DNA of 64,000 bases, from the sequence record PQ330092; one strand, written 5' to 3'. Numbering within the stretch: the stretch's first letter is position 1; the number at the start of each line of letters is the position of its first letter. The position numbers and the translations under genes are program-made. Source of the stretch: Escherichia phage JP4. Shown here in pieces: positions 35,495-35,733 of the stretch. The notes below the pieces were generated by a model. It searched no databases and was not told the origin of the DNA. It worked only from the letters and a program-made list of their open reading frames with translations.

Positions 35495-35647
35495 ATGAAA
35501 CAATATAATGCTCGGTTTGATGTTACTATCGGTAACGGCAAAGGTCAATTTTCTTTCAGTACTCGACGCAGTTATACAGAAAACTTCCTGCGTAATTGTG
35601 CACTGACCGCCGCTCAAATTAAACACTATTTTCAGGCTAAAAAATGA
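35495..35647 (+). CDS. hypothetical small early protein (50 aa)
   Basis: Start at MKQYNARF after AGGAGAAA RBS; promoter+hairpin upstream. Confidence 0.6.
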   Translation: MKQYNARFDVTIGNGKGQFSFSTRRSYTENFLRNCALTAAQIKHYFQAKK

Positions 35648-35733
35648 AATCATTAGCTTATTACAGTTCGGCCCTGGTCGGTGCATTGATCGCGGCATTG
35701 TTAGTAACCTATCTATTCTTTATGGTGATTTAA
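35644..35733 (+). CDS. putative 29-aa hydrophobic (single-TM) peptide
   Basis: ATGA overlap with previous gene; MKSLAYYSSALVGALIAALLVTYLFFMVI. Confidence 0.4.
   Translation: MKSLAYYSSALVGALIAALLVTYLFFMVI

Follow-up and report, generated by a model that had tools for sequence, protein, structure and literature searches.

Two very small hydrophobic ORFs in the direct terminal repeat of an Asteriusvirus jumbo phage as probable genes for single-helix membrane peptides

Results

Two mini-ORFs carry a coding signature

The 64,000-nucleotide (nt) stretch of Escherichia phage JP4 analyzed here (record PQ330092; hereafter the window) contains two very small open reading frames (ORFs), miniORF1 and miniORF2, which are very probably genuine genes for hydrophobic membrane peptides consisting of a single helix. 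A first-pass annotation made from the sequence alone had placed them at 35644-35733 and 39475-39567, and both the coordinates and the peptides were found to be exact. Their description as single-helix hydrophobic peptides agrees with best 18-residue Kyte-Doolittle means of 2.63 for miniORF1 and 2.86 for miniORF2, and with an AlphaFold model of miniORF2 in which residues 5-26 form a single helix (predicted local distance difference test, pLDDT, 92) behind a short MQMNP head.

By its sequence, the window is that of an Asteriusvirus, the genus of the PBECO4/121Q-like jumbo coliphages, which the region matches at 84-98% identity; its closest match is vB_EcoM_E9.1 (95.5% identity over 5 kb). For comparison, the corresponding region from 21 relatives was aligned, 20 of these being annotated. 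In this AT-rich window a small hydrophobic ORF is nothing unusual by itself: of 540 ATG-initiated ORFs of 20-50 amino acids (aa), 25 reach an 18-residue Kyte-Doolittle mean of at least 2.5. Since hydrophobicity alone is unremarkable in AT-rich DNA, the case rests on comparative evidence. Three features go beyond chance: the exact fit of the ORFs into the slots between genes, a frame-specific substitution pattern, and the persistence of miniORF2 through extensive nucleotide change.

The miniORF1 frame is intact in 21/21 relatives, the sole length variant being an in-frame 6-nt deletion in the low-quality CMSTMSU assembly. Over 14 unique sequences, the ratio of nonsynonymous to synonymous polymorphism (pN/pS) is 0.22 in frame versus 1.93 and 0.99 in the other frames (gene A, immediately upstream, gives 0.085 in its own frame), and the changes are distributed 4/2/10 over codon positions 1/2/3 (binomial p=0.016). 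The replacements are all conservative (K2R, S3T, L4F, L11V, V12I, G13V, T22A). At its 5' end the ATG overlaps the TGA of gene A (ATGA, 35644-35647), and at its 3' end the TAA directly abuts the ATG at 35734. Only AGG (35634-35636) is found upstream, 7 nt before the ATG; because this Shine-Dalgarno (SD) sequence is weak, miniORF1 probably relies on coupling to gene A for its translation. We consider it likely that this gene is fixed, specific to the genus and expressed through such coupling.

In contrast to the start of miniORF1, that of miniORF2 is free of overlap, and it is the 3' end that overlaps the next gene (ATGA, 39564-39567). The overlapping starts attributed to both ORFs in the first-pass annotation are thus a property of miniORF1 only, while the good translation signals attributed to both are seen in miniORF2 (AAGGAG, 8 nt before the ATG) and not in miniORF1. 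The junction between the 121Q_297-like and 121Q_299-like genes, where miniORF2 lies, has three architectures among the aligned relatives. In type (a), found in the window and 11 relatives, the SD sequence, miniORF2 and the ATGA overlap are present. In type (b), found in eight relatives and three metagenome contigs, the ORF is absent and a promoter (TTGCAC-17-TATAAT), a 5' hairpin and an SD sequence stand in its place. Type (c), in A4 and Turkey5, combines promoter and hairpin with a diverged miniORF2, MHMNPFIVVIAI(I/M)MAVQAVL(V/E)YLSKAGVI. At the nucleotide level the type (c) allele is 61% identical to that of the window, but its frame remains open and its product just as hydrophobic. The 34 differences in 87 nt are distributed 12/4/18 over the codon positions (p=0.013), the peptide similarity reaches z=11-13 against shuffles, and in simulations that introduced 34 substitutions at random, just 0.36% of the runs retained an ORF as open and hydrophobic as miniORF2. 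Extending the count to the matching GenBank records, the promoter cassette replaces miniORF2 in 15/36 of them (~40%).

miniORF2 has probable relatives beyond Asteriusvirus

Homologues of the flanking genes were found in RaK2-like Klebsiella phages, rV5-like phages, GAP32, CBB and Yersinia/Erwinia jumbo phages. Immediately 5' of the 299-like gene, RaK2, Muenster, KP13-7 and one metagenome contig have a 27-aa ORF, MYMPIIIPLAVLLIAAVICEQYHLLGM, with the consensus MY(M/I)PIIIPLAVLLIAAVICE(Q/H)YHLLGM; it is annotated only in K64-1, as an identical peptide (gp462, YP_010843346.1). Its SD spacing is 8 nt, as in miniORF2, and equal SD spacing is also seen in A4 and Turkey5. The 27-mer resembles miniORF2 modestly, but more than composition would explain (z=3.7, p=0.002), and together with synteny this similarity makes it a probable miniORF2 homologue. 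When the family was delimited as hydrophobic ORFs of 27-30 aa with an SD sequence 8 nt upstream, ending at or no more than 3 nt from the start of the 121Q_299-like gene, Asteriusvirus type 1, the A4/Turkey5 type and the Alcyoneusvirus 27-mer all belonged to it. No counterpart of the 27-aa ORF was found in EJP2, GAP32, fHe-Yen9-04 or two distant metagenome contigs, and a metagenome scan with the 121Q_299-like alignment gave six loci, one with the 27-mer and five with no mini-ORF. From its sequence and position, miniORF2 appears to be an accessory gene paired with the 299-like gene and shared with Klebsiella RaK2-like phages.

General searches returned little else. By tblastn, neither peptide was found outside Asteriusvirus in the phage collection, and plasmids gave nothing; IMG/VR yielded only 121Q itself, phmmer with miniORF2 against 1.84 billion representatives only its own cluster, and a homologue search with a concatenated 86-aa query nothing. 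Pfam, PHROGs, PADLOC and sequences of the PDB gave nothing significant for either peptide, the SHEFM2K record tags both ORFs No_PHROG, and miniORF1 has a weak match to phrog_32088 (E=0.005). One profile, NCBIfam NF033695 ('KPN_01571 family protein', trnsprt_adja_30), describes a 30-aa enterobacterial protein of a length like that of miniORF2. The score is 17.5 bits (E=0.0025) for miniORF2 and 15.3 bits (E=0.012) for the A4 allele; both matches begin at model position 1 and fall well short of the curated 35-bit cut-off, and 0/20 shuffles matched, 10 of them retaining the MxMNP head. The RaK2 27-mer and miniORF1 gave no match to the profile. A transporter neighbour, as implied by the family name, was not found, the flanking genes being small phage ORFs; a literature search for the KPN_01571 family gave nothing, and a contig scan with the pattern MNPxIxVxAxxM gave only chance hits among the matches listed. 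We give only a small chance to the proposal that miniORF2 belongs to a small-protein family common to Enterobacteriaceae (KPN_01571, 'transporter-adjacent') and RaK2-like jumbo phages, that it would bind and re-tune an inner-membrane transporter or complex of the host early in infection, and that its slot would be an exchangeable peptide/promoter cassette for host adaptation.

In the slot equivalent to that of miniORF1, RaK2 (320-436) and Muenster (580-696) carry a 38-aa hydrophobic ORF, MIVKVLTTIIQYCIITGVAFVLAVAIVFSTVIVLGNIS, after the gene A homologue. This unannotated ORF has TAATG and ATGA overlaps, is conserved between the two phages, with 11/2/8 differences at the three codon positions, and overlaps a clear TTGACA-17-TATTAT promoter; we regard it as a candidate gene only. 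Its homology to miniORF1 was rejected (z=-0.3 to 1.3).

Chance ORFs and coupling spacers

Untranslated chance ORFs, conserved by close kinship or by a constraint at the RNA or DNA level, would account for the fact that many annotators did not call them, and the 38-aa ORF of RaK2 and Muenster indicates that a hydrophobic ORF in this slot can coexist with non-coding signals. The substitution pattern is nevertheless frame-specific, the distance from SD sequence to ATG is conserved across genera, and no ORF on the minus strand spans either region. An explanation by RNA structure was rejected, since folding was not significantly above shuffles (z=0.25 and -1.43). We regard chance ORFs as very unlikely.

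A second possibility is that the ORFs serve as translational-coupling spacers, the peptide being functionless and its hydrophobicity a by-product of T-rich sequence. The ATGA and TAA-ATG junctions that flank miniORF1 on both sides, the ATGA at the 3' end of miniORF2, and the 3' ends that encode the SD sequence of the next gene are all in keeping with such a role, as are the substitution of miniORF2 by a promoter and SD sequence and the abundance of hydrophobic small ORFs in the window DNA. A spacer would not be expected, however, to stay hydrophobic and conserve its second codon positions while diverging by 39% in nucleotides (the 12/4/18 pattern and the 0.36% of simulations given above), nor to show the low pN/pS and exclusively conservative replacements of miniORF1, and a probable miniORF2 homologue persists in a second phage genus. 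Spacers without a functional peptide seem very unlikely.

Both ORFs represent an ordinary, well-known sort of phage gene, one that frequently escapes annotation, as the first-pass annotation had suggested. miniORF1 is called in 5/20 annotated relatives and miniORF2 in 7/13 of the annotated relatives that carry it; several records do include them as 'hypothetical protein', while most omit one or both, and annotation is thus inconsistent. Identical or near-identical versions in the same slot have been deposited for miniORF1 as phAPEC6 gp520c (QDF14143.1) and as SD-phage hypothetical proteins, and for miniORF2 as 121Q_298 (YP_009101885.1; 93% identical) and G17_00022 (QBO61518.1; identical).

The mini-ORFs lie in compact units of the terminal repeat

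A perfect direct repeat (26792-43886 = 46906-64000, offset 20,114 bases) reaches the end of the window, which carries two tandem copies of a direct terminal repeat (DTR) of ~20.1 kb; both mini-ORFs are consequently present twice. The first copy begins AGTAGGCAGAGGAAGTCTGCC. Keeping both terminal repeats adjacent, the source record is apparently a permuted or concatemer-like representation. In vB_Ec-M-J the corresponding region carries a DTR annotation; in fEgEco12 the DTR has been experimentally confirmed by restriction mapping (PMC13070987), and in Sharanji it was predicted with PhageTerm (PMC11895373).

In the compact unit around each mini-ORF, a promoter and a 5' hairpin precede three or four small genes, and an intrinsic terminator follows them (Table 1). 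The SD sequence of gene C (GGTGAT) is inside the final codons of miniORF1, and that of the 121Q_299-like gene (AGGAG) in codons 26-28 of miniORF2.

Table 1. Features of the two units and positions of the mini-ORFs in the window.
Feature	Position	Strand	Remarks
Operon 1 sigma-70-type promoter, TTGCAA-16-TATAAT	35417-35444	+	carries repeated motif AGTACTGTATAAT at 35432-35445
Operon 1 leader hairpin, GGGGAGAA-ATGA-TTCTCCCC	35457-35476	+	member of repeated cassette
Gene A, 50 aa, MKQYNARF..., phrog_7119	35495-35647	+	TGA overlaps miniORF1 ATG
miniORF1, 29-aa single-pass hydrophobic peptide (predicted), MKSLAYYSSALVGALIAALLVTYLFFMVI	35644-35733	+	
Gene C, 44 aa, Lys-rich, phrog_29913	35734-35868	+	begins right after miniORF1 TAA
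Operon 1 intrinsic terminator, 12-bp stem, TTCG loop, T-run	35875-35902	+	G17 annotates a terminator there too
Promoter TTGACT-17-TATTAT	35882-35910	+	overlaps operon 1 terminator
Operon 2 promoter, TTGACA-16-TATAAT	39168-39195	+	sigma-70 consensus, 12/12
Operon 2 5' hairpin	39208-39227	+	downstream of 39168-39195 promoter
121Q_297-like gene, 70 aa, phrog_13428	39245-39457	+	
miniORF2 SD sequence, AAGGAG	39461-39466	+	8 nt before ATG
miniORF2, 30-aa single-pass hydrophobic peptide (predicted), MQMNPMIIVLAVLMIIHAIVEVLTQSGVIK	39475-39567	+	counterpart of 121Q_298
121Q_299-like gene, 57 aa, phrog_10572	39564-39737	+	ATGA overlap with miniORF2
121Q_300-like gene, 49 aa, phrog_37188	39734-39883	+	final gene of operon 2
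Operon 2 intrinsic terminator	39895-39922	+	overlaps a TTGACT-17-TATTAT promoter
miniORF1, second identical copy	55758-55847	+	terminal-repeat copy 2
miniORF2, second identical copy	59589-59681	+	terminal-repeat copy 2

The promoter motif AGTACTGTATAAT has 38 matches in the window against 1.4 expected, nearly all on the plus strand and within the DTR, with ~17 occurrences per repeat copy. The leader hairpin GGGGAGAA-N4-TTCTCCCC has 15 matches against 0.05 expected and often follows AGTACTGTATAAT ahead of small genes. Over 27172-45151 these elements line up in one direction as a dense series of promoter cassettes, with a second copy over 47286-63741. The two terminators (35875-35910 and 39895-39930; 12-bp stem, TTCG or TCCG loop) each include the -35 box of a TTGACT-17-TATTAT promoter, so that termination and re-initiation signals are merged in one element.

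In jumbo phages the terminal repeats are densely packed with very small early genes, which are thought to drive host takeover. The first-pass annotation placed both ORFs in early operons: the promoter-to-terminator units with sigma-70-type promoters are there, and early expression is plausible from the promoter type, the DTR position and RNA sequencing of PA5oct, a related phage of the RaK2 clade. In this phage, transcription of the DTR genes is high at 5 min, infection is sensitive to rifampicin, and the genes of the terminal repeat depend on the host RNA polymerase (PMC7318152). Similarly, RpoD-like promoter regions containing short ORFs were ascribed to early genes in the CBB paper (PMC5259590).

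Predicted peptides and possible modes of action

The basic N-terminus of miniORF1 (M-K) is followed by an interfacial stretch of aromatic and polar character (SLAYYSS) and then by 20 hydrophobic residues up to the C-terminus; the positive-inside rule suggests an N-in, C-out topology. Its hydrophobic moment is 0.01. Two neighbouring ladders of small residues at i+4 spacing, A5-S9-G13-A17 and A10-A14-A18-T22, are present; small-xxx-small motifs are a pattern typical of a helix-packing face, and the ladders, combined with zero amphipathicity, fit a tight packing interface. The helix of miniORF2 bears a polar ladder in its C-terminal half (H17-E21-Q25; hydrophobic moment 0.26), whose residues vary by allele, with H or Q at 17 and E, V or K at 21.

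In its high hydrophobicity and near-zero moment, miniORF1 resembles KdpF and MgtS. When the two mini-ORFs were tested for membership of the small inner-membrane proteins (no longer than 50 aa), the signature of protein-level selection and a single bilayer-spanning hydrophobic stretch were present in both, the helix being predicted by AlphaFold for miniORF2. KdpF, MgtS, AcrZ and MgrB belong to this class (PMC12648545), with which the mini-ORF peptides share a length of ~30 aa, one transmembrane (TM) helix and very short tails. miniORF1 also has small-residue packing faces; the mini-ORF peptides have no sequence homology to these proteins, are phage-encoded, and lie in presumably early polycistronic units and not beside the operon of a partner. 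Among phage proteins, the 'putative membrane proteins' CPT_Muenster_023 (37 aa) and CPT_Muenster_029 (42 aa), with one TM domain and an N-in, C-out orientation by TMHMM, are also tiny single-TM genes of the early terminal-repeat array in a related jumbo phage, but occupy other slots and show no similarity by eye.

We see a little better than an even chance that both ORFs encode early inner-membrane peptides of ~3 kDa which act as accessory, partner-modulating factors via helix packing. Each peptide would form one TM helix in the host inner membrane. Host RNA polymerase would transcribe both genes from the sigma-70-type DTR promoters, and the peptides would probably be made in the first minutes of infection. 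Ribosomes would re-initiate on miniORF1 through coupling to the upstream gene (ATGA) and be passed to the next gene (TAA-ATG), while miniORF2 would use its own SD sequence and be coupled to the downstream gene. Both peptides would then pack helix to helix against a putative membrane partner, as non-essential factors modulating the host. Taken alone, binding to a partner rather than disruption of the membrane is a tentative proposal, to which we give somewhat less than an even chance. Computation does not separate a toxin from a modulator, and modulation by helix packing is favoured here over disruption.

Several observations weigh against reading both ORFs as genes for such partner-modulating peptides. 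Divergence within Asteriusvirus is low, which leaves 16-34 events for the codon statistics. At its invariant 3' end each ORF also supplies the SD sequence of the next gene, so that conservation of the C-terminal tail is in part a nucleic-acid constraint. miniORF1 has a weak SD sequence and is confined to Asteriusvirus (34 records by tblastn in the phage collection). miniORF2 is absent from 8/21 relatives and, being replaceable, is needed by neither the phage nor the downstream gene.

The peptides might instead be membrane-active toxins of the type I or holin-like kind, which would oligomerise, dissipate the proton-motive force and aid early host shut-off. Size and a single hydrophobic helix match those of small membrane toxins, in most cases proteins of less than 60 aa with a single TM helix (PMC12648545), and strong promoters drive both mini-ORFs. 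The type I toxins TisB, IbsC, HokB and ShoB are likewise small, hydrophobic, single-helix inner-membrane proteins, and miniORF2 has a partial polar stripe at i+4 spacing with a moderate hydrophobic moment. This stripe is not strictly kept, however (E21V in A4, E21K in BF17, H17Q in A4 and Turkey5), and miniORF1 is non-amphipathic, with no charged or polar lining. In contrast to type I toxins, which form a stand-alone, tightly repressed unit, the mini-ORFs are embedded in operons and appear to be translationally coupled. Control of the antitoxin type was not found: the minus strand has only weak 9/12 promoter-like sites (35548-35520 and 39677-39650), no direct search for small RNAs having been made, and the ATGA coupling and the folding scores given above do not correspond to the structured, translationally inert primary transcript of such toxins. 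Early depolarisation would also presumably starve the long cycle of a jumbo phage of energy. No lysis genes are nearby, which also speaks against the holin, antiholin and single-gene lysis classes, the neighbours being phrog_7119, 29913, 13428, 10572 and 37188 with promoters of sigma-70 type. Taken together, we consider a membrane-active toxin unlikely.

Two further classes were not supported. Neither window peptide contains a cysteine, and a lipobox as in lipoproteins and o-spanins is therefore absent; a leader peptide or attenuator upstream ORF does not agree with the location of both ORFs between genes, with no structure above shuffles and no internal terminator.

Superinfection exclusion or counter-defence was also considered, in which the peptides, lodged in the inner membrane, would keep out the DNA of later phages or disarm an effector of defence or abortive infection that is bound to the membrane. 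Such functions would be well served by early expression from the terminal repeat, the part that enters first, and the presence/absence and allelic replacement of miniORF2 in close relatives resemble those of arms-race accessory genes. T4 Imm is an early envelope protein, and at 83-97 aa T4 Imm and Sp are much larger than the mini-ORF peptides. T4 Sp, too, is an early envelope protein (PMC7677548); both are early phage envelope or membrane proteins like those proposed here, without similarity to them. Known exclusion proteins are larger, no similarity to a PHROG, Pfam or PADLOC family was found, and miniORF1 is almost invariant, unlike genes under arms-race evolution. A role in exclusion or counter-defence seems quite unlikely, somewhat more so than a toxin.

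If either peptide binds a specific host membrane protein, it would provide a compact inhibitor or tool, and the two, being very small and easy to synthesise, are candidates for studying how jumbo phages manipulate the E. coli inner membrane. The analysis also corrects an inconsistent annotation over about 35 deposited genomes and adds a gene pair conserved in two genera, namely the peptide and the 121Q_299-like protein.

Other observations in the window and its relatives

Other hydrophobic small ORFs of the window (3040-5828, 34028, 40656) were rejected as mini-genes, since they are either internal starts within larger genes or other reading frames of these. Outside the terminal repeat, at 3421-6201, a tandem array of ~8 abutting or overlapping genes encodes paralogous-looking proteins of 104-141 aa, each with several hydrophobic segments; the small hydrophobic ORFs picked up in this array are internal starts of its genes.

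A 19-codon ORF, MKKVVDFGQPFCYYIFIER (35869-35928), crosses the operon 1 terminator. A 1-nt difference lengthens it to 37 codons in E9.1, where it is annotated; since neither frame nor length is conserved, it is probably not a gene. Two annotation errors are likely in relatives: in vB_Ec-M-J, the 113-aa homologue (863-1204) of window 36083-36424 is labelled 'DNA ligase', and in UE-S1 a minus-strand ORF (248-451) is called over the gene A region while gene A is omitted.

The N-terminal half of gene C (35734-35868 and relatives) occurs as two very different alleles, NPNGIIYSTPKTKADK and NPTGLNYKSCSAFTKANK. Since these differ while the adjoining miniORF1 is constant, a recombination breakpoint at the gene junction is indicated.

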